From: Candidatus Omnitrophota bacterium
GTDB taxonomy: Bacteria; Omnitrophota; Gorgyraeia; Duberdicusellales; Duberdicusellaceae
Assembly (NCBI GenBank): GCA_016932855.1
Contig: JAFGCB010000064.1
Span: 1,767 to 65,766, forward strand
Direction of reading: 5' to 3'
DNA: 64,000 nucleotides
The translations under genes and the position numbers were made by a program. Under the pieces are notes generated by a model. It made no database searches. It was not told the origin of the DNA and saw only the letters and a list, made by a program, of their open reading frames with translations. Positions 1,651-53,317 of the stretch are shown in pieces (the stretch's first letter is position 1; each line of letters begins with the position of its first letter).

Positions 1651-2586
1651 ATGAACAGTATATTAGTTACAGGCGGAGCCGGTTATATCGGTTCGGTTAT
1701 GGTGCCGTATTTGTTAGAGAATAATTACCGGGTGACTGTAATCGATAATTTCATGTATAACCAGGCTTCTCTTTTGGATTGTTGTTACCATAATCAGTTA
1801 AAGGTTATACGAGGGGATGTGCGCGACAGAGAGTTGTTAAAAGAGGCGCTTAAGACAGCAGATTTTATACTTCCGTTTGCTTGTTTGGTCGGTGCTCCCT
1901 TGTGTCTAAAGAGGCCTAGCGAGGCAGAAGCGGTAAATCGCGATGCCATAGAAGACATTTTGCGACTGCGAAGCAGAAGTCAGCGGATTATCTTTCCTAC
2001 TACAAATAGCGGCTACGGCATAGGCCAAGACGATGTTTATTGCACTGAGGAGACTCCTCTTTGTCCCATCTCTTTATATGGCAAGCTTAAAGTCGAGGCG
2101 GAAAAGATACTTTTAAATTCAGGTAATGTTATTACCTTGCGTCTGGCTACTGTCTTTGGTATAAGCCCCCGGATGAGGCTTGATCTCTTAGTTAATGATT
2201 TTGTATACCGGGCTGTGCGGGATAATTATATAGTTCTTTTTGAGTCTCATTTCAAGCGAAACTATATTCATATACGGGATGTTGCCAGGGCGGTCTTGCA
2301 TTGCATAAATAATTTCAACAGCATGAAGGATGAGCCCTATAATCTAGGTTTAAGCGATGCTAATCTTTCGAAGCTTGAGCTTTGTCAAGAGATAAGAAGG
2401 CACATAACTACTCTACAGATCATGGAATCGTCAGTGGGTCGGGATCCCGATAAAAGAAATTATATAGTTAGTAACGCAAAGATTGAAAGGACCGGCTTTA
2501 AGCCGCAATTTAGCTTATCGGCGGGTATTGCCGAGCTAATAAAAGGGTACCAGATTATAAGAAATAATTCTTTCACTAATGTTTAA
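1651..2586 (+). CDS. NAD-dependent sugar epimerase/dehydratase (extended SDR)
   Basis: ILVTGGAGYIGS Rossmann motif; YGKLK catalytic YxxxK; ~310 aa extended-SDR length. The substrate is not inferable. Confidence 0.7.
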   Translation: MNSILVTGGAGYIGSVMVPYLLENNYRVTVIDNFMYNQASLLDCCYHNQLKVIRGDVRDRELLKEALKTADFILPFACLVGAPLCLKRPSEAEAVNRDAIEDILRLRSRSQRIIFPTTNSGYGIGQDDVYCTEETPLCPISLYGKLKVEAEKILLNSGNVITLRLATVFGISPRMRLDLLVNDFVYRAVRDNYIVLFESHFKRNYIHIRDVARAVLHCINNFNSMKDEPYNLGLSDANLSKLELCQEIRRHITTLQIMESSVGRDPDKRNYIVSNAKIERTGFKPQFSLSAGIAELIKGYQIIRNNSFTNV

Positions 2587-2616
2587 CATACGATTATTAT
2601 GCAGGATAGAGGTAGT

Positions 2617-3702
2617 ATGAAAATTCCCTGGGCAAAGCCTTATATCGGTCGTTCCGAACTTGAGGAAGTCAAGGCTTGCTTTGACCGTAGCTGGCTTTCT
2701 ATGGGGCAGAAGGTCGAGGAATTAGAAGAATTTGCTTCGGGTATCGTTGGTTCTTCATACGGGGTAGCTGTTAATTCCGGTACTGCTGCTTTGGATATTG
2801 CTTTAAAGCTTATAGGAGTTGGTCCCGGGGATGAAGTTATTGTTCCTGCTTTAGCTTATATCGCTACGGCAAATGCCGTGCTTTACCAGCAGGCTAGGCC
2901 TGTCTTTGCCGATATCGATGAAAAGAGTTACTGTATTTGTCCCAAATCAGTTGAACATAATATTACCGATAAGACTAAAGCCGTGATCGCTATAGATTAT
3001 GCCGGCCAGGCTCCGGACTATAACGCTTTAAGAGATGTTTTGGGAAAAAGAGGTATTTTTTTAATTGAAGATGGCGCTCCGGGATTAGGTGGCAGTTATC
3101 GAGGAAAGCCTCTTTGTTCAAGAGGTGATGTAAGTATAACCAGCTTTCATATGGCCAAGATATTTACCTCGGTTGAGGGTGGTATGCTTTTTACCGATAA
3201 ACAGCAGTGGGACGCAGTAGCTAGGATGATTCGTTCACAGGGGGAAGACCCTTCGCTAAAATATCACCATCCTGTTTTGGGTCATAATTACAGAATGAGC
3301 GATATATACGCGGCAATAGGCTTAGAACAGCTTAAAAGATTCGATGCTGTCCTAAATAAAAGGGCGGTTTTAGCTCAGCACTATTCGCAGGGCCTTTCAA
3401 GCCTTAATTCAATGGTTTTACCTAGAGTTCTGGACGGCAATAAACATGCCTGGTTTCTTTATCCGGTTTTAGTTTCTGACCGGGATAAAATCGCTGCCTT
3501 GCTTAAAGCTGAAGGCATAGAGACTAATATATCCTGGCCAATGCCGGTATATGAACAAAAGATTTATAAACAATATTTCAAAGAGGAATGTTCCGTAGCC
3601 AAGAGGATTACCCAGACTGTACTGTGTCTTCCGATTTATTATGAAATGACCGAGGATGAACAGGATTACGTGATTGATACTCTTGTAAGCCTTTTACGAT
3701 AA
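2617..3702 (+). CDS. DegT/DnrJ/EryC1/StrS-family PLP sugar aminotransferase
   Basis: WLSMGQKVEELE…NSGTAALDIAL… and a conserved lysine region (SFHMAKIFTS); ~360 aa. The start at 2617 has a GAGGT SD upstream. An upstream in-frame ATG at 2599 is an alternative. Confidence 0.75.
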   Translation: MKIPWAKPYIGRSELEEVKACFDRSWLSMGQKVEELEEFASGIVGSSYGVAVNSGTAALDIALKLIGVGPGDEVIVPALAYIATANAVLYQQARPVFADIDEKSYCICPKSVEHNITDKTKAVIAIDYAGQAPDYNALRDVLGKRGIFLIEDGAPGLGGSYRGKPLCSRGDVSITSFHMAKIFTSVEGGMLFTDKQQWDAVARMIRSQGEDPSLKYHHPVLGHNYRMSDIYAAIGLEQLKRFDAVLNKRAVLAQHYSQGLSSLNSMVLPRVLDGNKHAWFLYPVLVSDRDKIAALLKAEGIETNISWPMPVYEQKIYKQYFKEECSVAKRITQTVLCLPIYYEMTEDEQDYVIDTLVSLLR

Positions 3703-3713
3703 CGGGGGAGTGT

Positions 3714-4796
3714 ATGGCGGATAGCCAAGGAAATACGATTACAATAGGTGGCAGGATTGTGGGCGAGGCAGAGCCGGTATTTATCATTGCCGAGGCAGGA
3801 GTTAATCACAACGGAGATATTGAATTAGCCAAGAGACTCGTAGATATCGCAAAAGAATCTGGAGCTGACGCCGTAAAGTTTCAGACTTTTAAAACCGAGA
3901 ATATCATTATCCCCAGCGCTCCTAAATCAACCTACCACATTGAAACTACAGGCGCAGAACAGTCCTGGTTTGAGCTTTTGAAGACCCAAGAATTAGACAA
4001 AAAGGCCCACCGGATATTATTTGAATATTGCAAAAAAAGAGAGATTGTATTTCTTTCGACTCCTTACGATGAGGAAAGTGCTGATTTATTGGAGGAGCTG
4101 CCGGTTTCCGCCTTTAAAGTCGCTTCTACCGACGCGAATAATATCCCTTTTTTAAGATACTTGGCACGGAAAAGACTTCCTATTATTTTGTCTACGGGGA
4201 TGTGCACTCTTGGGGAGGTTAGAGAAAGCGTGGAAGCAATAAAAAGCGAAGGTTGTCAGGATTTGATGCTCTTACATTGTACCGCTGACTACCCGGCCAA
4301 GCTAGAAGACGCCAATCTTCGGGCTATGTTGACACTAAAGAATGAATTTAATCTGTTAGTAGGCTATTCTGACCATATTCCAGATTGTATCAATCCTATT
4401 GCGGCAACAGCTTTAGGAGCGCGGGTGTATGAAAAACATTTTACCTTGGATAAAAGCCTGCCGGGGCCAGACCACAGAGCGTCCTTAAACCCTAAAGAGT
4501 TGAAAGAATTAGTAGATAGTATAAGGAAGACAGAAGCGGCCCTTGGTTCTTCCGTGAAAAAGTGTACTTCTGCAGAGCAAGAAAATAGAATAAAACTGCG
4601 AAAAAGCATTTTAACTAAGGTAGATATCCCTAAAGATACCCCAATTGATAGTTCTATGATAGAGATTAAAAGGCCGGGTTTTGGATTGGAACCAAAATAT
4701 TATCATTCACTTATAGGCAAAAAGGTCCGTAATTCGCTAAGTTCCCATGCTCCTATTACCTATAACGATATTATATGGGAGGATTTGGATGAATAG
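3714..4796 (+). CDS. NeuB-family nonulosonic acid synthase (sialic/legionaminic-acid-synthase-like) with C-terminal SAF domain
   Basis: N-terminal PVFIIAEAGVNHNGD…GADAVKFQTF… and HCTADYP… motifs of the NeuB/PseI/LegI TIM-barrel; C-terminal SAF-like tail. A GGGGGAG SD precedes the ATG. Confidence 0.8.
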   Translation: MADSQGNTITIGGRIVGEAEPVFIIAEAGVNHNGDIELAKRLVDIAKESGADAVKFQTFKTENIIIPSAPKSTYHIETTGAEQSWFELLKTQELDKKAHRILFEYCKKREIVFLSTPYDEESADLLEELPVSAFKVASTDANNIPFLRYLARKRLPIILSTGMCTLGEVRESVEAIKSEGCQDLMLLHCTADYPAKLEDANLRAMLTLKNEFNLLVGYSDHIPDCINPIAATALGARVYEKHFTLDKSLPGPDHRASLNPKELKELVDSIRKTEAALGSSVKKCTSAEQENRIKLRKSILTKVDIPKDTPIDSSMIEIKRPGFGLEPKYYHSLIGKKVRNSLSSHAPITYNDIIWEDLDE

Positions 4797-5526
4797 GCTT
4801 CCGGAGCAATTTAAAAACTCTGGCTTTGAAGATAAGATTAAAGCTGTAAGAAGTTTAGAAGCTCAACGAGATCATCAAGGTGACATGTATAAAAAACCGC
4901 TCAATGCAAAAAGAAGAGAAATGATTAAAAGCTTATTAAAGGAATTTGTGAAGCAAAAGAAATTTATGGAGATTGGATGTGCGGAAGGGTTTTATTGCGG
5001 ATGTGCGGCAGAATATGGCGCCCTAAGCGTTACGGGAATAGACCTTGTGGCTAAAAAGCTCAATGAGGCTAAGAGAAGATACCCGGGATGCAAGTTTGCC
5101 TTAGCAGATGCTACAAAAATTGCGATAGATGACGATAAATTTGACCTGATATTATGTTCAGAGGTTCTTCAGCATTTAGTAGATTATGACGAATGTTTAA
5201 ATCGAGCGTGCGGGTTATTGAAACCCGGAGGTATTTTAGTTATATCCGTGCCTAATCTTTCTCTTTCTAGCGAGCATGAATTTGCCAATGTCTCTGAGGA
5301 TATGGAACCAGAGGAGCTACTCCATGAGATTGGAGGAGCCAGTTATGGGAAGCAAAACGCGCTCTGGAAGTTTAACACAGAAAAATTAAGTGAAGAAATA
5401 AGTTCGAACTACCCGTTGCAATTGATTGATTTTATAAAAGTTGGAGCACCACCCCTTAAGCATCAAACAGCAGCCCAGGCTGAAAATATTTTTACTATTC
5501 TCGTTTATAAACGGCGGTCAGACTGA
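4789..5526 (+). CDS. class I SAM-dependent methyltransferase
   Basis: MEIGCAEGFY… glycine-rich SAM motif I and an acidic motif II (DLILCSEVLQH). The internal ATG at 4789 overlaps the upstream stop by 8 nt. The longer ORF from 4747 would run deep into the neuB-like gene. Confidence 0.6.
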   Translation: MNRLPEQFKNSGFEDKIKAVRSLEAQRDHQGDMYKKPLNAKRREMIKSLLKEFVKQKKFMEIGCAEGFYCGCAAEYGALSVTGIDLVAKKLNEAKRRYPGCKFALADATKIAIDDDKFDLILCSEVLQHLVDYDECLNRACGLLKPGGILVISVPNLSLSSEHEFANVSEDMEPEELLHEIGGASYGKQNALWKFNTEKLSEEISSNYPLQLIDFIKVGAPPLKHQTAAQAENIFTILVYKRRSD

Positions 5527-5546
5527 TATTCAAAATATTTAATTCT

Positions 5547-6410
5547 ATGTCGGTTTTTGTATCAACGACATTTATGCCTAGTCAAAGCCCGGTAAGGCAG
5601 GCAATTGGTATGCTTAAGAGTATAGGTGTTTGTAATATCGAATTAGGTTCTATCCATTGTTACGAAGAAGGCTTGATTTCTTTTCTTAAACAACAAGGCA
5701 GTAATTACCTTATGCATAATTTCTTTCCGCCTCCCCAAGAACGCTTTATATTAAACATCGCTTCGGTTGATGAAGGGGTGCGTAGAAAGAGCCTTGACTT
5801 TATTCGAAATTCAGTTGATGTGGCCGAAGAGATTGGTTGCCGGATATACACAATTCATCCGGGGTTTATTTCTGATCCCGAAGCTGAGAGTGCTTCTTTG
5901 GACAATTATGATTTTCAGTTTGCCTCAAGTACCCTTTCTAAAGAGCTGCGGCAGAAGTCATGGGATAATTTCTTTGCTTCGTTGATAGATATTTCTTTTT
6001 ATGTCAAGGGCAAGAAGATAACAGTAGCTCTAGAGACCCAAGGGTCGGTTTCCAAGAAGGATTTTATGCTTTTTTCTACCCTTAAGGATTTTTTTTCTTT
6101 TCTAAACGATAGCCGAGCCGATAACATCGGCGTTAATCTTAACCTGGCGCATCTGAATCTTTCTTCAAAGGCCTGGGGGTATGATATGTTTAGGGCAATA
6201 GATATGCTAAAGCCGAGGATAAAAGCGGTTGAAGTAAGCCACAGCGATAGTTCAAGAGACAGCCATCAGGCTTTAGCTAAAGATGGATGGTATATAGACT
6301 TATTAAGGGATGATTTTTTTAAAACCGTTGCAGTTATTTTTGAAGGGCGTGATTTATCCTTGACTAAAGTAGAACAATCATATCAAATTTTAAACGATGT
6401 CTGTGGATAA
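5547..6410 (+). CDS. sugar phosphate isomerase/epimerase (xylose-isomerase-like TIM barrel)
   Basis: ~287 aa. The pattern of conserved acidic/His residues (…IHPGF…, …ALETQG…, …NLNLAHL…) resembles the AP-endonuclease-2/xylose-isomerase-like fold. This is a weak family-level call. Confidence 0.45.
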   Translation: MSVFVSTTFMPSQSPVRQAIGMLKSIGVCNIELGSIHCYEEGLISFLKQQGSNYLMHNFFPPPQERFILNIASVDEGVRRKSLDFIRNSVDVAEEIGCRIYTIHPGFISDPEAESASLDNYDFQFASSTLSKELRQKSWDNFFASLIDISFYVKGKKITVALETQGSVSKKDFMLFSTLKDFFSFLNDSRADNIGVNLNLAHLNLSSKAWGYDMFRAIDMLKPRIKAVEVSHSDSSRDSHQALAKDGWYIDLLRDDFFKTVAVIFEGRDLSLTKVEQSYQILNDVCG

Positions 6411-6465
6411 AAAGGATTCTTTATTGTCTGAGAAGAGGCTCGAACATAAAGAGGAAGAGCTTAAT

Positions 6466-7848
6466 ATGAAAGCGCGAAAGAAGAGGATTATTTTGCCTCA
6501 GAAGGCTAGCATAAAGGAAGTAATGGATACGATTAACCAGGTACCTTTGGGGCTTGTGGTTTTGACCGATGATGATAAGGTTCTTAAGGGAGTCGTTACC
6601 GATGGCGATATCCGAAGAGGTCTACTTGATGGTATTTGTCTTGATGAGCCGATAGAAAGAGTTATGAACACAAGCCCGGTTGTTGTGCGTAGGGGATATA
6701 GCAGTAACGAGATACTTCGTATGTTTAGTGAGCAGATAAGACGTATTCCTGTGGTTGATGAAGAGAACCGGGTCGTGGATATTGTGTTCTACGAAGAATT
6801 TCGCAATCTGCATAAAGGCGAGAAAAAAGTTATTGTTCGAGGCAGGGCTCCTCTTCGGATAAGTTTTGCCGGAGGCGGTACCGACGTAAATCCCTACATC
6901 GAAACCCGAGGTGGAGTGATATTAAGTACCACTATAAATAAGTATTGTTTTGTGACTTTGGAGAAGCGAACCGATAAAAAAATTACCATTCATTCGAGCG
7001 ATTACAATCTTACGGTTGAATCCGAAAATCTTGAAGATTTAAAGTACGATGGAGAATTAGATCTTATAAAGGCGGTTATAAAATTAATGCATCCTTCTTT
7101 TGGTATGGATCTATGTCTTTATTGCGACGTTCCTCCTGGTTCCGGCCTGGGAGGTTCAGCGGCAGCGGCAAGTGTTACCGCCGGTGTTTTAAATCATCTG
7201 CGCCATAACAAACTTGATGAATATCAATTGTCTGAACTGGCATTTCAAGCTGAGCGGGTAGAACTTGGAGTAGCCGGTGGCTGGCAGGATCAGTATGCGG
7301 CCGTATTCGGCGGTTTCAATTTTATGGAATTTAAGAAAGAAGATGTTATCGTCCATCCTTTAAGGATTAAAGAAGATATTCTCAATGAATTAGAATCGAG
7401 CTTACTTATCTGTTTTACCGGCAAGACGAGAAATTCAGGCCGGATAGTTGAATCCCAGACAAAGTCATATCTTTCGAATAAGATGGTTGTGGTTGACGCT
7501 TTACTTAAAACCAGTGATTTTGCCATTCAGATGAAGAATACTCTTTTGAAAGGTAACCTTATTAAATTCGGCAAGCTTCTGCATCAGGCCTGGCTAGTCA
7601 AGAAGAAATTCGACAGTAAAGTCTCCGACCCTTTCATCGATAGCCTTTATGAAGCCGGGATAAGCGCCGGGGCCATAGGCGGGAAGATCTTAGGGGCAGG
7701 CGGAGGCGGATATATTCTATTTTTCTGTCCGCATTTAAAGAAAATCGCTATAGCCAAAGCCTTGGAAGAGGCCGGAGGAAAGATCATGAATTTTAATTTT
7801 GATTTTCGCGGTCTTCAAACCTGGATGGTTCAATGCCATGATGAATAA
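6466..7848 (+). CDS. CBS-pair domain fused to GHMP-family sugar kinase (heptose-7-P-kinase-like)
   Basis: The N-terminal ~120 aa look like a CBS pair (…PVVDEENRVVDIV…). A GHMP kinase follows (APLRISFAGGGTDV…, PPGSGLGGSAAAASV, GAGGGGY glycine-rich C-terminus). The start at 6466 has a GGAAGAG SD upstream. The longer ORF from 6397 lacks an SD. Confidence 0.7.
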   Translation: MKARKKRIILPQKASIKEVMDTINQVPLGLVVLTDDDKVLKGVVTDGDIRRGLLDGICLDEPIERVMNTSPVVVRRGYSSNEILRMFSEQIRRIPVVDEENRVVDIVFYEEFRNLHKGEKKVIVRGRAPLRISFAGGGTDVNPYIETRGGVILSTTINKYCFVTLEKRTDKKITIHSSDYNLTVESENLEDLKYDGELDLIKAVIKLMHPSFGMDLCLYCDVPPGSGLGGSAAAASVTAGVLNHLRHNKLDEYQLSELAFQAERVELGVAGGWQDQYAAVFGGFNFMEFKKEDVIVHPLRIKEDILNELESSLLICFTGKTRNSGRIVESQTKSYLSNKMVVVDALLKTSDFAIQMKNTLLKGNLIKFGKLLHQAWLVKKKFDSKVSDPFIDSLYEAGISAGAIGGKILGAGGGGYILFFCPHLKKIAIAKALEEAGGKIMNFNFDFRGLQTWMVQCHDE

Positions 7849-8584
7849 AGTACCAATTCTTATTCTTGCCGGAGGCCTGGGCACAAGACTTAAGGCCTTA
7901 GTGCCTGATATACCTAAGCCTATGGTTGCCTTTAGGGGTAAGCCTTTTCTTGAGTATCAGATAGAGTATGTAAAGAATAAGGGTTTGGATAATATTATTC
8001 TTTGTATTTCTCATTTAAGAGACTCTATCATCGATTATTTTAAAGACGGCAAAGAACAGGGAGTTAGTCTTAGATATTCAATCGAGCCACAGCCTTTAGG
8101 TACGGCTGGAGCGATAAAGAAAGCGGCTGAAAGCTTCGATTTGCCCGATTATTTTTTTGTAATAAACGGAGACACTTTCGTTGAATGGCAGCCGAGCAAG
8201 CTTCTTAGAGTCTTTTTAAAGACAAAATCAAAGATAGTTCTTGGGCTTAGCCGGGTTTCCGGCCGGGATGTATCAAGGGTTGAGACGGCAGATGACGGTA
8301 AGATAATCTTTTATAAAGAAAAAGCTTTAGTTGCCTCTAAAGCAGCAAAAGCGGCTTATTCAGGCGCCGGCGTCTATGTTATAGCCAGGGATTTATTTAA
8401 GCTATGGCCTGAAAAGAGGCTTTCGCTGGAGTATGATTGTATCCCCAGATTAGTTTCCCAGGGCAGGGCTTACGGCCTTCTCCTCGATTCAGAGGTTTAT
8501 GATATAGGCACGCCCGAGAGGCTTAAAGTCTTTGAACGGTTTTTAGTTTCTCAGAGGGACGGGATTTTGTCATTTAGAAGATAG
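7838..8584 (+). CDS. sugar-1-phosphate nucleotidyltransferase
   Basis: ILAGGLGTRLK…PKPMV signature of NDP-sugar pyrophosphorylases; ~248 aa. The ATG overlaps the upstream stop. The ORF extends upstream to 7799 but that part lies inside the kinase gene. Confidence 0.7.
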   Translation: MMNKVPILILAGGLGTRLKALVPDIPKPMVAFRGKPFLEYQIEYVKNKGLDNIILCISHLRDSIIDYFKDGKEQGVSLRYSIEPQPLGTAGAIKKAAESFDLPDYFFVINGDTFVEWQPSKLLRVFLKTKSKIVLGLSRVSGRDVSRVETADDGKIIFYKEKALVASKAAKAAYSGAGVYVIARDLFKLWPEKRLSLEYDCIPRLVSQGRAYGLLLDSEVYDIGTPERLKVFERFLVSQRDGILSFRR

Positions 8585-8632
8585 AGCGTTTTTAAGCTTT
8601 ACCCGGCTTAAGGCAAAGAAAAGGCGTTTTTT

Positions 8633-9373
8633 ATGAAAGTGGTATTAATAATTCAGGCCAGGATGGGTTCAACCAGACTTCCGGGAAAATCAATGCTTGA
8701 TTTGGCCGGCGCTCCTTTAATCGCCAGGCTCATCGAACGGGTAAAAAGAGCCGGTGGTCTCGAGGCGATTGTCTTAGCCACGACTGTTAAAACCCAAGAC
8801 GATGTGCTTAAAAGGATAGCCGATGATTACGGCATTTTTTCTTTTCGAGGCTCGGAGAATGACCTTGTTGACCGTTATTATCAAGCAGCCAAGGTTTTCA
8901 AGGCGGATATTATCGTCCGCCTGCCGGGTGATAACCCGGTTGCGGAGCCCGGAGAAATTGACCGGATTATTGAATATCATAGAAAAGGCTTAAGTGATTT
9001 TTCTTCTAATATTATGCAGGTAGATAACAACGGTTATCCTGACGGTATCGGCGCCGAAGTTTTTAACTTTGAAGTTTTAGAGGATGTCTGGCGCCGGGGT
9101 GGTAATCCTAGCCAGCGAGAGCACCTTGCTACGAATTTCTATGATTACTTCTCCCAGAAGGCCGTATATCCTTACAGGTATAGAATAGGTACAGTAGAGT
9201 GTCCGCAGAGTTTCAGGCGTCCGGATTTGAAGTTAGATGTAAATACCGCAGAAGAATATGAGTTTATGCGTAATTTATATGAGTATTTATATTCCCGAAA
9301 TCCTCAGTTTCATATAACTGATATTATAAAATGGTACGATGAAATATTTATAAAACAAAGCCTAAGGAGATGA
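8633..9373 (+). CDS. CMP-nonulosonate (acylneuraminate) cytidylyltransferase family, SpsF/NeuA/LegF-like
   Basis: IIQARMGSTRLPGK… N-terminal motif of the CTP_transf_3 family; ~246 aa. Confidence 0.7.
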   Translation: MKVVLIIQARMGSTRLPGKSMLDLAGAPLIARLIERVKRAGGLEAIVLATTVKTQDDVLKRIADDYGIFSFRGSENDLVDRYYQAAKVFKADIIVRLPGDNPVAEPGEIDRIIEYHRKGLSDFSSNIMQVDNNGYPDGIGAEVFNFEVLEDVWRRGGNPSQREHLATNFYDYFSQKAVYPYRYRIGTVECPQSFRRPDLKLDVNTAEEYEFMRNLYEYLYSRNPQFHITDIIKWYDEIFIKQSLRR

Positions 9374-9375
9374 TT

Positions 9376-10362
9376 ATGCAAGAGAAAGGACGCGTAGTTT
9401 ATTGGAACGGAGAATTTATACCCGAGCAAGAAGCCCGAATTTCTATCTACGACTCGGCCTTGATGTTCGGGGATATGATTTTTGAGATGACCCGCTCCTT
9501 TAATAAGAAACACTTCAAGCTACGCCAGCATTTGGAAAGACTCTATACAGGAATTAAGATTTTACGGGTTCCTATATCTATGACCATTGATGAAATGGAA
9601 GAAGCTGTTTACAGAACAGTTGAGGCTAATGAGCCGGTATTTGCCGATGATGATGAGCATAGAGTTATGATTGATGTCTCCAGAGGCCTGCTTTCTCTTT
9701 ACCAAGGTGTTGTGGGAATCCCTCCCGGGCCTAATGTTATTATTGCTGATTTTCCCCTGCGCTGGACAGTAGCCGGCTGCGGACATTTATATGATGAGGG
9801 AATAAAGTTAGTGATTTCATCCCAAAGAGCGATTCCCGCCCATTTAATTGAACCAAAGATTAAGAATAGAAGCCGTCTCTTTTATCTAATGGCAAACATT
9901 GAAGTCTCCAATTACAAAGGTAGCAATAACTGGGCTTTGTTACTTGATCCCGACGGGTTTATCGCTGAAGGCACAGGAAGCAATTTTTTTATGGTAAAAG
10001 ACAATGTTATTTACACTCCCGAGGGCCGTAACATATTACGGGGCATTACCCGGGCGACTGTCATGGATGACTTAGCTCTCAAGCTGGGCATTAGGTGCGT
10101 GGAGAAGAATCTTGAGACTTATGACGTGTATACTGCTGATGAGGTTTTTCTTACTTCAACGCCTTTTTGTATTCTGCCGGCAACATACTTTAATGGAGTG
10201 CCGATAGGTGACGGTAAGCCCGGTGAAATAACCCGACTTCTTTTAAATACCTGGAGCAAAATTGCAGGGCTGGATATCGTTGAGCAGATTAAAGGCTGGG
10301 ATAAGAAAGAACAAACTAAAGACCCCAACGCGCCTTCGCCCTATCAATTTAAAGCTCGCTAA
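9376..10362 (+). CDS. class IV (fold-type IV) PLP aminotransferase, BCAT/D-amino-acid-aminotransferase-like
   Basis: WNGEFIPEQEARISIYDSALMFGDMIFE… start typical of fold-type IV enzymes; ~328 aa. GGAG SD is 7 nt upstream of the ATG at 9376, which overlaps the upstream stop region. Confidence 0.6.
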   Translation: MQEKGRVVYWNGEFIPEQEARISIYDSALMFGDMIFEMTRSFNKKHFKLRQHLERLYTGIKILRVPISMTIDEMEEAVYRTVEANEPVFADDDEHRVMIDVSRGLLSLYQGVVGIPPGPNVIIADFPLRWTVAGCGHLYDEGIKLVISSQRAIPAHLIEPKIKNRSRLFYLMANIEVSNYKGSNNWALLLDPDGFIAEGTGSNFFMVKDNVIYTPEGRNILRGITRATVMDDLALKLGIRCVEKNLETYDVYTADEVFLTSTPFCILPATYFNGVPIGDGKPGEITRLLLNTWSKIAGLDIVEQIKGWDKKEQTKDPNAPSPYQFKAR

Positions 10363-10417
10363 ATTCCTTAGAGACAAGGCAGGGTCGGTTGAATAAAAAA
10401 ATATATGAATTCTAAAA

Positions 10418-11269
10418 ATGAGCAATATTAAGACAGCTGTTAATCGAGTAGGCATTATGCAGGGACGTTTAAGCCCTATGATCGACGGCAGGATACAAGT
10501 ATTTCCGGCTAAGACCTGGAGAGAAGAATTTATTTTGGCCAAAGAATGCGGTTTTGAGCTCATTGAATGGGTTTTTGACGCTGTTCAATGGCAGGATAAC
10601 CCGATTTTATCATCTTCACAGCGTAGGCAGATTATTCAATTACAGAAAGAGTGTAAGGTTTGGGTTCCGGCTGTTTGCTGTGATTACTTCATGGAATATC
10701 CTTTGTCTAGCCCTGTTTTAGAAGAGAGAGAAAAAAGCCTTACGGTATTAAAGGACATAATCCGAATATGCCCTGAGCTGGGGATACAATACGTAGAACT
10801 TCCTTTTTTAGGTAAGGCAGAAATCAAAGAAGAATACGCGCAGACTATCATCGTGGAGTTACTCAGCGGCCTTGTTTCTTTAGCCGAAGAAAATAATGTT
10901 TACATTTTATTGGAGTTAAGCCTTTTGCCTCGCCAGGTTTACGGCCTGCTTAAGAGATTATCCTCACGGCGTATCCAGCTTAATTATGATACCGGTAATA
11001 GTGCTTATTGGGGCTATGACCCTAAAGAGGAATTCTCTCTTTACGGGGGGCGTATAGGAAATATCCACATCAAAGATTGCACCAAAAAAGACTATAGCCT
11101 GCCTTTAGGAGAGGGAGAGGTTGATTTTGATCTTGTATTCTATTTGCTTAAGAAGATAAATTACCGGAAAGATTTTATCTTGCAGACTGCCCGGGGTGAT
11201 GATGACTCAGGTCTTGCAAAGAGGTTCTATGAGTTTACCAGTTCCTATATTAAGGAGTATTTAATATGA
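10418..11269 (+). CDS. sugar phosphate isomerase/epimerase (xylose-isomerase-like TIM barrel), paralog 2
   Basis: ~283 aa. It resembles UlaE/hexulose-6-P isomerase-like TIM barrels (…ELIEW…, …YVELPFL…, …HIKD…). Family-level call only. Confidence 0.45.
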   Translation: MSNIKTAVNRVGIMQGRLSPMIDGRIQVFPAKTWREEFILAKECGFELIEWVFDAVQWQDNPILSSSQRRQIIQLQKECKVWVPAVCCDYFMEYPLSSPVLEEREKSLTVLKDIIRICPELGIQYVELPFLGKAEIKEEYAQTIIVELLSGLVSLAEENNVYILLELSLLPRQVYGLLKRLSSRRIQLNYDTGNSAYWGYDPKEEFSLYGGRIGNIHIKDCTKKDYSLPLGEGEVDFDLVFYLLKKINYRKDFILQTARGDDDSGLAKRFYEFTSSYIKEYLI

Positions 11270-12036
11270 GATTAGGTTTAGAGAAAAAAGTCTTTATAGT
11301 ATCGGGTTCCAGCCGGGGTATAGGCAAGGGGATAGCTAAAATATTGTTAGAAGAAGGAGCCTGTGTTGTGCTTACCGGCAGAGAAGAAAAATCCTTAAAA
11401 GCTACTTTCAGGGAATTTTCTTCTTTGTTTAAAGGCCGTCTTCTAGAGCAGGCCGGCGATTTAAATACAACTTCAACTCTTAAGAAACTTAGACAAAAGG
11501 TCTTAAAAAAATGGGGAAGGATTAACGGCCTTGTCGCCAATGCCGGCGGGGTAAAGCCGGTTAAGGAACTTTTTATCTCTGATTCTGACTTTAAGTGGTA
11601 TTTTCAAGCAAACTTTGAATTGGCCCGCAGGTTTGTAACTTACTTTATTGAAGACATTAAAGAGACAAAAGGAGCGATTGTTTTTATAAGCTCCATAGCA
11701 GGGCTTGAGGATGTCGGCGCCCCGCTTGCATATAGCGCGGCTAAGGCAGCCCTTGGGGTGTATGCCAAAGGTTTATCCCGGAGGCTTGCTTTCGAAGGTA
11801 TCCGGGTAAATACCGTGGCTCCCGGTAACATTTTGTTTGCCGGAGGCAATTGGGATAAAAAACAGAAAGCTAATCCCGAAGCAGTTAAGAAGATGCTTAA
11901 GGAGAAAGTTGCCTTACGATGTTTCGGAAGCCCGGAAGATATCGGAAATATCGTGGCTTTTCTTCTTTCAGAGAGAGCTGGTTTTATAACCGGAAGTTGT
12001 TTTGTAGTCGACGGAGGCCAAACCCTAAAAATGTAG
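11266..12036 (+). CDS. SDR-family oxidoreductase (FabG-like)
   Basis: FIVSGSSRGIGKGIA Rossmann motif; S…YSAAK catalytic triad spacing; ~256 aa; ATGA overlap with the upstream gene. Confidence 0.7.
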   Translation: MRLGLEKKVFIVSGSSRGIGKGIAKILLEEGACVVLTGREEKSLKATFREFSSLFKGRLLEQAGDLNTTSTLKKLRQKVLKKWGRINGLVANAGGVKPVKELFISDSDFKWYFQANFELARRFVTYFIEDIKETKGAIVFISSIAGLEDVGAPLAYSAAKAALGVYAKGLSRRLAFEGIRVNTVAPGNILFAGGNWDKKQKANPEAVKKMLKEKVALRCFGSPEDIGNIVAFLLSERAGFITGSCFVVDGGQTLKM

Positions 12037-12045
12037 AGGTAGATT

Positions 12046-12909
12046 ATGGATATGTCAAAACTATCCCAGCCGGAAAATTCGGTTAAGAAACAATTTGATT
12101 TATCAGGAAAGAATATTTTGATTACGGGAGGCGCTGGTTTCCTCGGCAGATTCTTTTGCGAGGCTGTTAGCGAAATGGGCGGTTTTCCCATTATTTTGGA
12201 TATTGACCGAGAAGCCCTGAAAGAGGCGCGTAAGCATCTTTCAAATCAGAATTTTAAAAGCGACGGCTATCTTCTTGATTTGACCGATGCTTCCGCGGTA
12301 CAAAGGACCGTCGATACTATTATTGAAAAATATAAGACTATTGATGTATTAATCAATGCCGCCGCCTTCGCCATGAAGAACCTTAAACAAGGCGGTCCAG
12401 AATTTTTTGCTTCTTTCGAAGAGTATAAAAAAGATTTATGGCAAATAAGTCTCGATGTTAATCTTACCGGGACCTTTCTTATCACCCAGGCCGTAGGCAG
12501 GATAATGAAGCTTAAAAAAAAGGGAGTGATTATAAATGTGGCATCTGACGTTGCTGTCGTCTCTCCTGACCACAGGATTTACCAGCCTGATGAGCGTTTT
12601 GACTATAAAGGGGTATCTTTCAATACGCCTTTAAGTTATGCCGTGGCTAAAGCGGGGATTCTTTCCTTTACGAGGTACTTAGCTACCTATTGGGCTAAAG
12701 ATGGTATCCGGGTAAATTCCGTTTCATTCTCAGGCGTTTACCGTAATCATGACCCGAAGTTTGTGGAGCAACTTTCTTTTCGTATTCCTTTAGGGCGAAT
12801 GGCTTTTCCTCAGGAATATAAAGGGCCTATTGTATTCTTGGCCTCAGAAGCTTCTTCGTTTATGACTGGGGCTAATTTAGTTATTGATGGAGGTAGGACC
12901 TGCTGGTAG
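12046..12909 (+). CDS. SDR-family oxidoreductase
   Basis: [13 protein letters not shown] glycine motif and YAVAK catalytic YxxxK. Confidence 0.65.
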   Translation: MDMSKLSQPENSVKKQFDLSGKNILITGGAGFLGRFFCEAVSEMGGFPIILDIDREALKEARKHLSNQNFKSDGYLLDLTDASAVQRTVDTIIEKYKTIDVLINAAAFAMKNLKQGGPEFFASFEEYKKDLWQISLDVNLTGTFLITQAVGRIMKLKKKGVIINVASDVAVVSPDHRIYQPDERFDYKGVSFNTPLSYAVAKAGILSFTRYLATYWAKDGIRVNSVSFSGVYRNHDPKFVEQLSFRIPLGRMAFPQEYKGPIVFLASEASSFMTGANLVIDGGRTCW

Positions 12910-12930: not shown

Positions 12931-14319
12931 ATGAAAGTCTTATTGGTAGTTTACGATAATGCTTCCTATATACATACATTCCCTCAAGGCACAGCCTATA
13001 TAGCGGCGGTATTGCAAAAAGAAGGACACCAGGTCAGTATTTATAATCAGGATGTCTATCATTATCCTGACGAGCATTTAACAGGATATTTGAATGAGAA
13101 TAAGTTCGACCTTGTCGGCCTGGGAATAATAGCCGGTTATTACCAGTATAGAAAACTTTTAGCTATTTCCCGGGCAATAAATAAGTCAAAAAACAGGCCC
13201 CTCTATATTTTAGGAGGCCATGGGCCTTCGCCTGAGCCGGAATATTTTTTGAAAAAAACCAGGGCTGATATCGTGGTTATTGGCGAGGGAGAAGAGACGA
13301 TTGTTGAGCTGCTTAGGGCAAAGGTTAAAGGTTCTTCTTTGAAGCCGGTTAAAGGAATCGCTTTTCGCCAGGGTGAGAAAGTAACGGTAAATGAGCGAAG
13401 GCTTCTCATAGCTGATGTAGATTCCTTGCCTTATCCGGCCTATGATTTGTTTCCTATTGAGTATTACCGGCTGATACGGGAGATGCACTCTACAAACAGT
13501 GACTTTGTGATGCCTGTTTTGTCCGGTCGGGGATGCCCTTTTCATTGTAATTTTTGCTACCGAATGGATGAAGGTTTTAGGCCTCGAAAAATAGAAGCGA
13601 TTATCGATGAGATTGAATTACTAAAAAGGAAGTATCTTATTAATTATATCGGTTTTTCCGATGAGCTTTTGATGTCATCGGTTCAGCGTACCGAAGATAT
13701 CTGCCGGGCATTTATTAAAGCTAAGCTTAATATCAAATGGTATTGTAATGGTCGTCTTAACTATGCTAAACCTGGTCTACTTAAGTTGATGAAGCAGGCA
13801 GGTTGCGCTTTCATTAATTACGGGATTGAGGCCGTGGATGACGAAGTGCTTAAGAATATGAGGAAGGTCTTAACAGTAAGGCAAATAACCGAAGGTATTG
13901 AGAATACTCTTAAGGCAAAGATAAGCCCGGGATTTAACATAATCTTCGGCAATATCGGGGACAACAAGAAAACCCTTAAAAGAGGCGTAGAGTTTTTATT
14001 GAAATACGACGACGCGGCTCAGATGCGGACCATTCGGCCGGTAACGCCTTATCCGGGTTCGCCTCTTTATTATTATGCTATTGAAAAAGGCCTCTTAAGA
14101 GACTGCGAGGATTTTTATGAAAACAAACACTTAAACTCTGACTTATTGGCGGTTAATTTCACCGACTTAAGCGATGAAGAATTTCACTGCTCTCTTATGA
14201 GGGCCAATATGCGTCTTCTTAAAAACTATTTTCGGAAAAAGCTTTTAAGTGTTACTTGGCAGTGTGAAGATCTTTATTTAAACCGTAATATTAATTTTAG
14301 GGGTTTTCGAAAAGTATAG
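12931..14319 (+). CDS. cobalamin(B12)-binding radical SAM enzyme (class B), paralog 1
   Basis: N-terminal B12-binding-like Rossmann region (LLVVYDN…LVGLGIIAG…ILGGHGPS). CxxxCxxC radical SAM cluster motif (RGCPFHCNFC) about 200 aa in. Confidence 0.75.
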   Translation: MKVLLVVYDNASYIHTFPQGTAYIAAVLQKEGHQVSIYNQDVYHYPDEHLTGYLNENKFDLVGLGIIAGYYQYRKLLAISRAINKSKNRPLYILGGHGPSPEPEYFLKKTRADIVVIGEGEETIVELLRAKVKGSSLKPVKGIAFRQGEKVTVNERRLLIADVDSLPYPAYDLFPIEYYRLIREMHSTNSDFVMPVLSGRGCPFHCNFCYRMDEGFRPRKIEAIIDEIELLKRKYLINYIGFSDELLMSSVQRTEDICRAFIKAKLNIKWYCNGRLNYAKPGLLKLMKQAGCAFINYGIEAVDDEVLKNMRKVLTVRQITEGIENTLKAKISPGFNIIFGNIGDNKKTLKRGVEFLLKYDDAAQMRTIRPVTPYPGSPLYYYAIEKGLLRDCEDFYENKHLNSDLLAVNFTDLSDEEFHCSLMRANMRLLKNYFRKKLLSVTWQCEDLYLNRNINFRGFRKV

Positions 14320-14348: not shown

Positions 14349-15362
14349 ATGATTTTAAAAGACAAGGTTATTTTAGTAACTGGGGGTACTGGTTCATTTG
14401 GAAACAAGTTCGCGGAAATAGTATTAAATAGGCATCGTCCTAAGAAGCTTATTATTTTAAGCCGCGATGAGTATAAGCAGCATCGAATGGCCAAGACTTT
14501 TCCCGAGGAGCGGTATCCTATCCGTTATTTTCTGGGAGATATCCGCGACCGCTACCGGCTTTTTCGGGCTTTTGAAGGAGTCGACTATGTTGTTCATGCC
14601 GCGGCTCTAAAGCAGGTGCCGGCTTTAGAGTACAATCCCACCGAAGCGGTAAAGACAAACGTTATCGGCGCGGACAATATTGTTGACGCGGCGATTGATG
14701 CCGGCGTTAAAAAAGTCATTGTTATTTCTACCGATAAGGCGGTAAACCCGGCTAATCTCTATGGAGCGACCAAGCTGGTTGCTGAGAAAATATTCGTCGC
14801 TGCCAATGCTTATGGCGGAGGTTCGGTAAAGTTTTCGGTGGTGCGCTATGGTAATGTTATCGGCTCACGCGGAAGCGTAATACCTTTATATTTGCGCTTA
14901 AAACGCGAGGGTATAAAATTATTCCCCTTGACCAGCAAAGACATGAGCCGTTTCTGGATTACTTTGGACAAAGGAGTAGAGCTAGTGCTTAAAGCAATAG
15001 AAGAATCCGAAGGGGGTGAGATTTTTGTTCCTATGTTGCCCTCGATGCGGATTGTGGATTTGGCAAAAGCAATAGAGCCTTTATGTACGTTTAAGATAAT
15101 CGGCATACGGCCGGGAGAAAAGATTCATGAGACTTTAATATCAGAGACTGAAGCGCGCAAGGCTAAAATATTCGGCGACGCCTATGTTATTTTGCCGCAA
15201 TTTCTTGACTCTGAGAATGTCCGCACAAAATACGAGCAATATCCCTTTGTTCCCGAAGGGTTCAGTTATGAAAGTGATAAGAACCAGTGGTATCTTGAAG
15301 CCGAAGAATTATCAGAGATGTTCAGTCAGCCTCAGGTAGTCCCAGAAGTGGAGAAAGTCTAA
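14349..15362 (+). CDS. pseB: UDP-N-acetylglucosamine 4,6-dehydratase (inverting)
   Basis: ILVTGGTGSFG, YGATKLVAEK and the MSRFWITL motif characteristic of PseB/FlaA1; ~337 aa. Confidence 0.85.
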   Translation: MILKDKVILVTGGTGSFGNKFAEIVLNRHRPKKLIILSRDEYKQHRMAKTFPEERYPIRYFLGDIRDRYRLFRAFEGVDYVVHAAALKQVPALEYNPTEAVKTNVIGADNIVDAAIDAGVKKVIVISTDKAVNPANLYGATKLVAEKIFVAANAYGGGSVKFSVVRYGNVIGSRGSVIPLYLRLKREGIKLFPLTSKDMSRFWITLDKGVELVLKAIEESEGGEIFVPMLPSMRIVDLAKAIEPLCTFKIIGIRPGEKIHETLISETEARKAKIFGDAYVILPQFLDSENVRTKYEQYPFVPEGFSYESDKNQWYLEAEELSEMFSQPQVVPEVEKV

Positions 15363-16513: not shown

Positions 16514-16577
16514 AGGAAATTACGCAGACTGCACCGCTTGTAAAACTTAAGGAAATAAAAGCAGCAAGTAGAAGAGT

Positions 16578-17330: not shown

Positions 17331-17332
17331 AT

Positions 17333-18334: not shown

Positions 18335-18350
18335 GCTTAAGGAGGATTAC

Positions 18351-21036: not shown

Positions 21037-21051
21037 TAAACATAAAAGTAT

Positions 21052-22080: not shown

Positions 22081-22129
22081 GGGCGGGGATTTTTGCGCAA
22101 GGAAGCCTTGAAAAAAGAAAGGATAGTCG

Positions 22130-52155: not shown

Positions 52156-52156
52156 C

Positions 52157-52194: not shown

Positions 52195-52209
52195 ATAAAT
52201 AGAGTAAAT

Positions 52210-53211: not shown

Positions 53212-53238
53212 ATATAAAAAAAATGCCAAATTTATTTA

Positions 53239-53294: not shown

Positions 53295-53317
53295 ATTAAA
53301 ACAATAATATTAAATAC

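Follow-up and report, generated by a model that had tools for sequence, protein, structure and literature searches.

The locus and its genes

The DNA examined here is a stretch of 64,000 nucleotides from contig JAFGCB010000064.1 of a Candidatus Omnitrophota bacterium (the window). It is a single long glycan-biosynthesis locus on the + strand, with a GC content of about 0.42. Its open reading frames (ORFs) were listed and then scanned with Pfam and NCBIfam models. The subject of this analysis is a block of 12 genes at positions 1651-12909, all on the + strand and, in the ORF listing, separated by intergenic gaps of at most 77 nucleotides. One of its products is a synthase of the NeuB family, NeuB1, and the block may encode a pathway to a CMP-activated sugar acid.

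An earlier note on this stretch had read the block as a probable second nonulosonic acid (NulO) pathway, upstream of pseudaminic acid (pse) genes. All of the genes it listed are present where it placed them and on the + strand, by ORF listing and by Pfam and NCBIfam. One gene had been missed, a methyltransferase at 4747-5526. The genes of the block, followed by two features that lie beyond it, are these:

1651-2586, + strand: extended short-chain dehydrogenase/reductase (SDR), here extSDR; predicted NDP(GDP)-sugar C4-dehydrogenase, not a 4,6-dehydratase
2599-3702, + strand: DegT1, DegT-family pyridoxal phosphate-dependent aminotransferase (PF01041, 347 bits); predicted C4 transaminase of a 4-keto GDP-sugar
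3714-4796, + strand: NeuB1, NeuB and SAF domains, phosphoenolpyruvate (PEP)-condensing ulosonic acid synthase (PF03102, 315 bits; TIGR03569, 421.5 bits)
4747-5526, + strand, start probably near 4789: class I S-adenosylmethionine (SAM)-dependent methyltransferase (Methyltransf_31/11/23/25), between NeuB1 and TIM1
5547-6410, + strand: TIM1, AP_endonuc_2 TIM barrel (PF01261); predicted sugar-releasing phosphoesterase
6397-7848, + strand, start probably near 6424: CBS pair plus GHMP kinase (two CBS, GHMP_N, GHMP_C), here the CBS-kinase; HddA-like anomeric kinase
7799-8584, + strand, start probably near 7838: NTP_transferase (PF00483), here NTase; HddC/ManC-like, probably GTP-dependent
8633-9373, + strand: CMPt1, CTP_transf_3, an SpsF/KdsB-like cytidylyltransferase (PF02348, 108.8 bits); predicted CMP-ulosonic acid synthetase
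9370-10362, + strand: class IV aminotransferase, BCAT/(R)-amine transaminase fold (PF01063, 146 bits); predicted to carry out a second amination
10418-11269, + strand: TIM2, AP_endonuc_2 barrel of the sugar-(phosphate) epimerase type (PF01261, 97.6 bits)
11266-12036, + strand: SDRa, classical SDR (adh_short/adh_short_C2)
12046-12909, + strand: SDRb, classical SDR resembling the KduD, gluconate-5-dehydrogenase and GolD families
12931-14319, + strand: B12-binding radical SAM enzyme (PF02310 and PF04055); possible sugar C-methylase, membership of the module uncertain
55698-57928, + strand: plain NTP_transferase, GHMP kinase and SIS_2 (GmhA-like) set (Pfam, NCBIfam); possible source of heptose 7-phosphate

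The pse genes lie 3' of the block. PseB starts at 14349 (458 bits, cutoff 408) and PseC at 15362 (525 bits, cutoff 423), and a second NeuB-family gene, NeuB2 at 21052-22080, is the true PseI of the window (467 bits, cutoff 340). An SpsF-like cytidylyltransferase and a PseG-like protein fused to a GNAT domain complete this downstream set, which is followed by acyl-chain enzymes, Wzx, Wzy, glycosyltransferases and an initiating transferase. NeuB1 shares no more than 34% identity with this PseI and belongs to another clade, which bears out the earlier claim of a second NeuB-based ulosonic acid pathway distinct from pse. The absence of a hydrolysing 2-epimerase was also seen correctly, in that the Epimerase_2 domain of NeuC and LegG was not found in any ORF of at least 120 amino acids across the whole 64-kb window.

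The enzymes of the block and their relatives

The most informative gene to begin with is the synthase. NeuB1 exceeds the 399.65-bit cutoff of TIGR03569 (NeuB/NnaB), a model that does not separate LegI from NeuB, and falls below the cutoff of the PseI model (314 bits against 340). Its best match in the PDB is the legionaminic acid (Leg) synthase SpsE of B. subtilis (1VLI, 244 bits). In a neighbour-joining tree with few references and no bootstrap support, it falls into one clade with its counterparts from the related loci L002, L046, L082, L084, L085, L088, L089, L090 and L092. Three other groups stand apart from this clade: the fusion proteins (see below), N. meningitidis NeuB, and PseI together with NeuB2. 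NeuB1 is not placed with the KDO-8-P or DAHP synthases, and there is no neuC in the window, so the earlier reading is not refuted on either count. The protein is 100% identical to an NCBI entry from a Candidatus Omnitrophica metagenome-assembled genome (MAG), and the same sequence occurs on a read-archive contig. Close homologs carry the JGI label 'N,N'-diacetyllegionaminate synthase'.

The link between this type of synthase and the CBS-kinase is not confined to the window. A genome collection was scanned with an alignment of CBS-kinase homologs, which gave 80 loci, and the window proteins were then run against these by tblastn. Of the 28 loci with a CBS-kinase, 21 also encode a NeuB homolog no more than 10 kb away; the same holds for just 1 of the 52 with a plain HddA-like kinase (Fisher p = 2e-12, kinship among the loci being ignored). 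Triple fusions of NTP_transferase, CBS and GHMP kinase domains occur among the kinase homologs. The gene set is also seen on independent metagenomic contigs.

Two arrangements recur. Type A clusters run extSDR, DegT, further genes, methyltransferase or CTP_transf_3, NeuB, NeuD/PglD-type acetyltransferase, TIM1, CBS-kinase and NTase. They include the closest relatives of the window (41-72% identity), all of them metagenomic, plus a Nanoarchaeia MAG; L082, L084 and L085, for example, have orthologs of extSDR, DegT1, NeuB1, TIM1, the kinase and the NTase in that range. Type B clusters have the order (GmhB), NTase, CBS-kinase, a NeuB::AP_endonuc_2 fusion, (GmhA-like SIS), (methyltransferase), TIM2, (CTP_transf_3 and class IV aminotransferase), SDR and SDR, where brackets mark genes that are not always present. 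They are carried by Leptospira, Bradyrhizobium, Burkholderiales, Rubrivivax, SAR86, Chlorobium, Sediminibacterium and Algibacillus. Bradyrhizobium sp. OK095, Algibacillus agarilyticus RQJ05 and Leptospira sp. 96542 are cultured strains with the fusion. The window combines a type A core with the CTP_transf_3, class IV aminotransferase, TIM2, SDR and SDR block that is typical of type B. The two TIM barrels and the class IV aminotransferase, which the earlier note had counted in the module, recur with it and are genuine components, not bystanders.

A compact island, L092, was reached from a distant TIM1 homolog. It holds extSDR, DegT, TIM1, NTase, CBS-kinase, NeuB, TIM2, SDRa, SDRb, CTP_transf_3 and an aminotransferase, and its flanking genes are unrelated. 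Because L092 repeats nearly the whole set, the 1651-12909 span behaves as one functional unit. The genes that flank the island, at 1-816 of L092, encode a histidine-phosphatase-superfamily protein and a glyoxalase/VOC protein. The phosphatase could stand in for GmhB. A VOC gene is found in L090 as well; in the septacidin pathway, the C3 of a heptose is epimerised by an enzyme of the VOC family.

The methyltransferase gene recurs in L082, L084, L085, L088, L089, L090 and L091, and the same seven loci carry a Hexapep/PglD_N acetyltransferase. The latter, of NeuD/PglD type, scores 216 bits against a cutoff of 161. Epimerase_2 is absent from these seven loci and from L092. Archaeal loci are represented too. 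L003, L006, L007, L008, L023 and L026, from Woese- and Pacearchaeota MAGs of the DPANN group, have extSDR, NTase and CBS-kinase, some with a GmhB-like HAD protein, and the Nanoarchaeia locus L002 adds orthologs of DegT1 and NeuB1 to the precursor genes. The carriage by DPANN suggests that the pathway, or its precursor arm, crosses the boundary between bacteria and archaea.

What might the precursor be? One clue is that extSDR matches PDB 6VO6/6VO8 over residues 3-310 (308 residues, its full length) with 376.6 bits and about 57% identity. We take these structures to be C. jejuni Cj1427, a GDP-heptose C4-dehydrogenase with an alpha-ketoglutarate ping-pong activity. SDRs that act as 4,6-dehydratases have a T(D/S)E motif. 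A 'TNSGYG' segment is common to extSDR and 6VO6, and the acidic residue of the dehydratase motif is missing in extSDR. The score against the LegB model TIGR04180 is 56 bits, far below the cutoff of 475, and orthologs with 53-68% identity occur in L002, L084, L085, L090 and L092. From these comparisons extSDR is predicted to be a GDP-sugar C4-dehydrogenase of the Cj1427 type and not a 4,6-dehydratase, so the label 'dehydratase/epimerase' given to it previously is not supported. Both the identity to 6VO6 and the missing acid/base motif make a 9-deoxy sugar unlikely. Cj1427 itself has been described as a GDP-heptose C4-dehydrogenase (PMC10680097, PMC7949155).

The other precursor genes fit with this. 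The best solved relatives of DegT1 are the GDP-perosamine synthases 3BN1, 3DR4 and 3DR7 (214 bits), ahead of PseC 2FNU (112 bits). DegT1 reaches neither the PseC cutoff nor that of the LegC model TIGR04181 (242 bits, cutoff 420), and its orthologs in related loci are 51-66% identical. GDP-perosamine synthases act on a GDP-linked, manno-configured 4-keto sugar. The top four PDB matches of the kinase are heptokinases (4USM/4USK, 3K85 and 4N3O, 225-263 bits), among the NCBIfam models HddA scores highest (285 bits, cutoff 600), and its CBS region resembles the CBS pair of KpsF/GutQ. The NTase adjoins the kinase in most loci. Its best model is HddC (134.5 bits, cutoff 300), followed by mannose-1-P guanylyltransferase (123 bits). 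A GDP-type nucleotide, proposed in the earlier note, is plausible given these nearest models and the perosamine synthase likeness of DegT1. A specific likeness to PtmE and PtmA, which was proposed along with it, finds no clear support. The CBS pair is on the kinase and not on the NTase, and SDRb scores 111 bits against the PtmA model (cutoff 350), no better than against dozens of other SDR models, so that PtmA was rejected as a non-specific match. In sum, the precursor arm looks heptose-type by its nearest relatives, rather than PtmE/LegB-type. The related Leptospira and proteobacterial clusters do encode a GmhA-like SIS protein and a true GmhB, the latter with 179 bits against a cutoff of 149.6.

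The second NTase, GHMP kinase and SIS set at 55.7-57.9 kb has no CBS domain and is only about 31% identical to the module kinase and NTase. In this region (55698-58611, with a DUF218 protein after the set) the HddA and HddC models fit less well than they do the module copies, and the NTase is closest to mannose-1-P guanylyltransferase.

If there is no NeuC or LegG, another enzyme would have to release the sugar from its nucleotide, and the candidate is TIM1. The PDB comparison revealed no close solved relative. The family is large, with about 750 clusters at 50% identity in a full HMMER search at E <= 1e-30, nearly all of them unnamed. An AlphaFold2 model of TIM1 has a pLDDT of 94, and the closest fold by Foldseek is the uncharacterised MJ1311. 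The TIM1 family profile aligns with E. coli endonuclease IV (Nfo) at an hhalign probability of 94.7%; overall identity is about 16%. The metal ligands of Nfo can be followed into TIM1: H109 corresponds to H104, E145 to E163, D179 to N199, H182 to H202, H216 to E229, D229 to D238, H231 to H240, E261 to E266 and H69 probably to H57. Alignments of 29 and 46 sequences show little or no variation at these sites, and the consensus of the larger alignment has D at 199 and H at 229, so that it matches endonuclease IV at all nine.

Gene context places TIM1 beside the synthase. It is fused to NeuB (P0307), to GNAT (P0401) and to a methyltransferase (P0300) within its family, and the GNAT::TIM1 fusion parallels the PseG-like and GNAT fusion of the window itself. 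TIM1 adjoins NeuB, or NeuB plus acetyltransferase, in L082, L084, L085, L088, L089 and L090, and shares a gene cluster with NeuB in L091 and L092. Three loci were picked solely by similarity to NeuB1, and all three have the order NeuB, acetyltransferase, TIM1, with neither Epimerase_2 nor PseG. One of them, L089, opens with a true PseB gene, and both the kinase and the NTase are missing from it. The presence of TIM1 with NeuB in such kinase-free loci indicates that TIM1 tracks NeuB and not the kinase, and the gene order suggests that TIM1 acts between N-acylation and condensation. Together, the metal ligands and the fusions to NeuB, acetyltransferase and methyltransferase argue that TIM1 is probably a metal-dependent hydrolase of nucleotide sugars, which would set the sugar free in the place of LegG or PseG. 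A manno-configured sugar, as a heptose would be, needs no 2-epimerisation, and this would explain the missing NeuC/LegG.

Other roles for TIM1 were considered. It was rejected as a substitute for GmhB (a sugar bisphosphate phosphatase), at least as its main role, because it follows NeuB and acetyltransferase in the kinase-free loci L088, L089 and L091 and because in Leptospira-type clusters a NeuB-fused TIM domain occurs alongside a true GmhB. The default annotation of an ordinary sugar isomerase or epimerase is compatible with the fold but is disfavoured by the ligand pattern and by the contrast with TIM2. Finally, TIM1 of the window is not an ortholog of the Leptospira NeuB-fused domain. No match was found by tblastn, and the link is by profile-profile comparison only, which makes the fused domain of type B a remote TIM1 homolog (hhalign 96.8%). 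Nineteen loci have the fusion (L005, L009, L010, L011, L013-L016, L019, L022, L024, L025, L027, L028, L034, L038, L043, L059 and L060). The fused AP_endonuc_2 domain is 64-75% identical across phyla, far above the NeuB domain or any neighbouring gene, and such conservation suggests a strong constraint on its activity.

The remaining genes would tailor and activate the product. CMPt1 has only weak matches to the KdsB and PseF models. Its orthologs are 56-59% identical beside the class IV aminotransferase in L016, L022 and L028, and 44% in L089. The class IV aminotransferase lies below every BCAT and DAAT cutoff (PDB BCATs 183 bits, (R)-amine transaminases about 117 bits) and has orthologs of 54-67% identity in L014, L016, L022, L028 and L089. 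In these five loci CTP_transf_3 and the class IV aminotransferase are neighbours, and their sequences are unusually conserved. A class III aminotransferase takes the place of class IV in L092 and L093, and this interchange suggests a simple keto- or aldehyde-transaminase step fed by SDR oxidation. TIM2 matches UlaE (3CQH, 1e-15). It retains only the E-D-H(-E) ligands, lacking equivalents of Nfo H109, H182 and H231, and is therefore best seen as a putative sugar epimerase or isomerase of the UlaE kind. It accompanies both SDRs in at least 15 loci. Neither SDR has an equivalog match; SDRa is 35-48% identical to its counterparts in related clusters, SDRb 60% in L092 and 37-48% elsewhere. TIM2, the SDRs and the class IV aminotransferase could act on the GDP-sugar, the free acid or the CMP-acid.

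B12-binding radical SAM genes recur near the module in L002, L007, L060, L082, L085 and L088. The window has five of them (12931-14319, 43555-44937, 45018-46439, 58661-60046 and 61227-62759) and one radical SAM/SPASM gene (60110-61201). Such enzymes may C-methylate sugars, which would be another way to ulosonic acids with an extra carbon.

A proposed route and its competitors

The domain content of the block, the nearest characterised relatives of its enzymes, the recurrence and fusions of its genes and the conservation of the metal ligands are matters of observation. On these, a pathway can be drawn. The CBS-regulated, HddA-like kinase and the HddC-like NTase would convert a heptose-type sugar phosphate, likeliest D-glycero-D-manno-heptose 7-phosphate, to a GDP-sugar (step 1). 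extSDR would then oxidise C4 while the C6 hydroxyl is kept (step 2), and the perosamine synthase-like DegT1 would turn the 4-keto into a 4-amino group (step 3). The methyltransferase would modify this amine or a hydroxyl, and it is here that the NeuD/PglD-type N-acetyltransferase of the relatives would act too (step 4). TIM1, as an endonuclease IV-like metallo-phosphoesterase, would strip off the nucleotide to free the reducing sugar (step 5), which NeuB1 would condense with PEP; from a heptose this would yield a 7-amino-3,7-dideoxy-dec-2-ulosonic acid with 10 carbons (step 6). TIM2, SDRa, SDRb and the class IV aminotransferase would tailor the product, probably by oxidation of a hydroxyl followed by epimerisation and/or the addition of a second amino group (step 7). 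Lastly, CMPt1 and CTP would activate it for the Wzx/Wzy polysaccharide machinery encoded downstream (step 8).

That the block is one self-contained pathway to a CMP-activated, NeuB-made 2-keto-3-deoxy sugar acid, by this undescribed route and through these steps, is a proposal that we hold with about as much belief as doubt. Homology, gene context, fusions and conserved residues are what we infer every biochemical assignment from, including all substrates, the nucleotide, the sequence of steps 4-7 and how many carbons the product has. A heptose substrate would lead to a C10 3-deoxy-dec-2-ulosonic acid that is aminated at C7 and probably carries a methyl group and another amine as well. A hexose or hexosamine substrate would lead to a 9-hydroxylated 7-amino nonulosonic acid, apparently also undescribed. 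The ten-carbon product in particular can be put forward only tentatively, with doubt somewhat outweighing belief. An alternative source of the extra carbon would be C-methylation of a nine-carbon acid by B12-binding radical SAM enzymes, of which the window encodes many.

Mass spectrometry has revealed C10 CMP-ulosonic acids in Magnetospirillum and other sources, but genes have not been assigned to them (PMC8157484; preprint 10.64898/2026.04.20.719630). In septacidin biosynthesis a 4-keto-heptose is transaminated, and a TIM-barrel epimerase acts on it (PMC9978623). Our literature search found no deculosonic or dec-2-ulosonic acid by name, and nothing that pairs GHMP with legionaminic. It is conceivable, if a little doubtful, that the module is the genetic basis of the C10 CMP-ulosonic acids, by C4 oxidation and amination of a GDP-linked D-glycero-D-manno-heptose, release by a TIM1-type hydrolase in place of NeuC, LegG or PseG, condensation by a synthase of the NeuB1 clade to an amino-deoxy-dec-2-ulosonic acid, second amination and transfer to CMP. 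Just as tentatively, this would be a new class of sialic acid-like sugars found across Omnitrophota, Marinimicrobia and DPANN, with a related NeuB::TIM cluster in Leptospira and Bradyrhizobium. For the Bradyrhizobium copies bradyrhizose was considered as the product and dropped, since it is a sugar without a carboxylate and the cluster spans many phyla.

Several observations weigh against a heptose-based pathway of this kind. Neither GmhA nor GmhB is encoded in 1651-12909, and no GmhB-like match exists anywhere in the window. The sole SIS gene (57362-57928) is 45 kb away and matches GmhA weakly (97 bits, cutoff 209). GmhA-like and SDR proteins also serve the hexosamine-based legionaminic route of C. 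jejuni (PtmF, PtmA). The kinase and NTase are so far below the HddA and HddC equivalog cutoffs that their substrates may differ, and 6VO6, taken here to be Cj1427, bears only a generic chain name from its depositor. For TIM1, seven of the nine ligands are the same in the window protein as in Nfo, while the remaining two are replaced by N and E. Foldseek scores endonuclease IV, UlaE and xylose isomerases alike, after MJ1311 of no known function, and fold alone does not settle what TIM1 does. In L089 members of the NeuB1 clade and of the TIM1 family are combined with a PseB (UDP-GlcNAc) arm, so a heptose is not a necessary substrate for NeuB1. No Hexapep/PglD_N (LegH/PglD-type) acetyltransferase was found by Pfam in the window, though most relatives carry one. 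Finally, the DPANN loci L003, L006, L007, L008, L023 and L026 have no NeuB within 10 kb, which means that the precursor arm can stand alone.

What if the starting sugar is a hexosamine? The kinase, with an unlinked phosphatase, would then replace the PgmL mutase, the NTase would make GDP-GlcN(Ac) in the manner of PtmE, extSDR and DegT1 would install the 4-amino group and TIM1 would take over the job of LegG. The product would be Leg-like, or a 9-hydroxy-5,7-diamino nonulosonic acid. This is essentially the idea of the earlier note, and it has attractions. NeuB1 passes TIGR03569, the model that NCBI uses for NeuB-type synthases, its homologs are named as legionaminate synthases, and SpsE is its nearest solved relative. 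The acetyltransferase of the related loci would fit, as would the pairing of the same cassette with a PseB arm on UDP-GlcNAc in L089. PtmF is GmhA-like and PtmE bears CBS domains. Both are used by the GDP-linked Leg route of C. jejuni (Schoenhofen 2009, cited in PMC6137143 and PMC3438082). Nevertheless, we consider a hexosamine-based nine-carbon pathway unlikely. It is at odds with an SDR that is neither LegB-like nor equipped with the dehydratase motif, with a DegT1 that is nearer to GDP-perosamine synthase than to PseC/LegC-type structures and with a kinase that finds only heptokinases among its best matches. Starting from a gluco-configured hexosamine, the route would also call for a 2-epimerase, which the window lacks; the module further has no LbH acetyltransferase and no GlmU-like gene. 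The divergent second pathway of the earlier note is supported, its legionaminic-like nine-carbon sugar less so. With extSDR close to 6VO6 and heptokinases as the nearest solved relatives of the kinase, the precursor arm appears heptose-type, and such a sugar is not the most parsimonious product; a C10 acid or a 9-hydroxylated 7-amino nonulosonic acid fits better.

Two further explanations separate the precursor genes from the synthase, and both look improbable. HddA-type GHMP kinases phosphorylate the anomeric carbon, and this matters for a proposal made for Leptospira by Ricaldi et al. There, NeuB would join PEP to a sugar phosphate, for instance heptose-7-P or a hexose-6-P, and the TIM barrel would be a phosphatase that removes the terminal phosphate from the ulosonate, like KdsC or NANP. 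The kinase, NTase, SDR and DegT would form a side branch. The idea is already published (PMC3438082) and is in keeping with the NeuB::AP_endonuc_2 fusions of 19 loci and of the TIM1 family (P0307), with an endonuclease IV-like site that is compatible with phosphomonoester hydrolysis and with the GmhA-like SIS gene directly after the fusion in L013, L014, L019, L022, L027 and L043. However, anomeric phosphorylation would block the chemistry of NeuB, which makes the kinase unfit as an 'adapter', and the tight linkage of kinase and NeuB is left unexplained. Furthermore, the acetyltransferase and methyltransferase fusions and the order NeuB, acetyltransferase, TIM1 set TIM1 by the NDP-sugar steps, and the PseB arm of L089 gives a 6-deoxy sugar with no terminal hydroxyl to carry a phosphate. 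The other explanation is that two unrelated pathways are simply neighbours, one for a GDP-4-amino-4-deoxy-heptose building block and one for an acid made by NeuB and the CMP-transferase from a substrate produced elsewhere. The DPANN loci with extSDR, NTase and CBS-kinase but no NeuB agree with this, as do L088, L089 and L091, which hold NeuB and TIM1 without a kinase; and the 64-kb window is a mosaic of sugar pathways. Against it stand the skewed distribution of NeuB (near 21 of 28 CBS-kinase loci and 1 of 52 plain ones) and the interleaving of the genes of both supposed pathways in the window, L084, L090 and L092, the last of which is bounded by unrelated genes. In addition, NeuB1 would have no source of substrate in the window, where there is no NeuC, LegG or second PseG.

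Known systems, neighbouring genes and significance

The proposed heptose-based pathway can be compared with several characterised ones. Its overall logic is that of the GDP-linked CMP-Leg pathway of C. jejuni (PtmF/PtmA/PgmL/PtmE/GlmU, LegB, LegC, LegH, LegG, LegI, LegF). Like that pathway, it would proceed by a dedicated non-UDP nucleotide sugar, a 4-keto and then a 4-amino intermediate, release, NeuB-type condensation with PEP and transfer to CMP, and both have a CBS pair on an activation enzyme and a methyltransferase in the cluster. However, the block lacks LegG, its SDR is not LegB, a GHMP kinase replaces the mutase and is the protein with the CBS pair, and the window is without an LbH acetyltransferase. 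In addition, the block has an endonuclease IV-like barrel, an epimerase-type barrel, two classical SDRs and a class IV aminotransferase. The GDP-heptose enzymes are the closest characterised relatives of the kinase, the NTase and extSDR (if 6VO6 is Cj1427), and related clusters have GmhB and a GmhA-like isomerase. Here the differences are the CBS pair at the N-terminus of the kinase, scores under the equivalog cutoffs and the fate of the sugar. C. jejuni turns its 4-keto-heptose into a GDP-heptose donor by epimerisation and reduction, whereas the block has an aminotransferase, NeuB and a CMP-transferase instead.

A synthase related to that of the block was noticed before. The NulO synthase of L. 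interrogans has a C-terminal 'endonuclease-like' domain, for which a phosphatase role was only guessed (Ricaldi et al., 2012, PMC3438082). As in the block, NeuB is coupled to an AP_endonuc_2 barrel and clustered with a nucleotidyltransferase, an aminotransferase and a CMP-synthetase, and the Leptospira-type locus L014 has the NTase, CBS-kinase, TIM2, CTP_transf_3, class IV aminotransferase and both SDRs in common with the window. Nevertheless, the Leptospira NeuB belongs to a different clade and lies below the TIGR03569 cutoff, and its fused barrel is only a remote homolog of TIM1. GmhA and GmhB are present in the Leptospira-type cluster, which is without DegT and without this type of extSDR; the reverse is true of the block. 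The sps genes of B. subtilis (SpsM, C, D, G, E, F; PMC7439481) encode the synthase nearest to NeuB1, SpsE, and an SpsF-type CTP_transf_3 in place of NeuA or PseF. In contrast to the block, this route is UDP-GlcNAc-based, uses a PseG-like SpsG for release and has no kinase, NTase or TIM barrels. Endonuclease IV, a trinuclear-metal phosphodiesterase, shares the TIM-barrel fold with TIM1, but the context of TIM1 is sugar biosynthesis and not DNA repair. For the tailoring steps there is precedent in Kdo8N (KdnB/KdnA), where a hydroxyl of the finished ulosonic acid is oxidised and then transaminated, and in septacidin (SepI/SepJ/SepG), where this happens on a 4-keto-heptose and a TIM-barrel epimerase acts next to the keto group. 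The enzyme families differ from those of the block, being Fe-ADH and DegT for Kdo8N and GMC oxidase and DegT for septacidin.

The rest of the window holds other unusual sugar genes. The pse cluster (14349-22828) is atypical. Its cytidylyltransferase is an SpsF-like CTP_transf_3 with no match to the PseF model, and a Gfo/Idh/MocA oxidoreductase and a third DegT are inserted, followed by the PseG-like (Glyco_tran_28_C) and GNAT fusion, PseI and a formyltransferase. This suggests a formylated or further aminated Pse derivative. The region 28465-36341 begins with an 836-residue fusion of Antibiotic_NAT and FkbH-like domains and continues with a MaoC dehydratase, an SDR, a C-methyltransferase-like protein, a protein without an assigned family and an amidase. 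The set has the look of a small assembly line for acyl chains, which might supply one of the amino sugars with an unusual N-acyl group, and an Antibiotic_NAT gene adjoins the module of L089 too. At 51142-54433 the alpha and beta subunits of an E1-type 2-oxoacid dehydrogenase (E1_dh; Transket_pyr/Transketolase_C) lie beside a fourth DegT aminotransferase; these subunits could put a two-carbon branch onto a sugar. A group of paralogs of about 365-410 residues is found both in the Omnitrophica window (22886-24100 and 33846-34943) and in the Leptospira NulO locus L014 (3606-4571 and 6165-7406). They are 31-33% identical between the two, no Pfam domain was found in any of them, and they thus form a component that recurs in loci of this kind. 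The protein encoded at 40235-41380 has a weak match to alpha-2,8-polysialyltransferase (PF07388), and might be the transferase that uses one or other of the two CMP-ulosonic acids.

Sialic acid-like sugars decide how hosts, phages and immune systems see microbial surfaces. To our knowledge, their biosynthesis follows three well-known nine-carbon routes, each with release of the NeuC, LegG or PseG type. The joint function of the genes described here has been hidden by automated labels such as N-acetylneuraminate synthase, heptose kinase and sugar phosphate isomerase. A candidate function can now be offered for the TIM1 family, with at least about 750 sequence clusters, and a possible one for the NeuB-'endonuclease' fusion noticed in pathogenic Leptospira in 2012. 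The block also provides a concrete candidate gene set for C10 ulosonic acids, so far seen only by mass spectrometry, and candidate enzymes for the chemo-enzymatic synthesis of new sialic acid analogues. It appears to add to the three known routes a fourth that is widely distributed and differs from them in its entry enzymes and in the enzyme for release.

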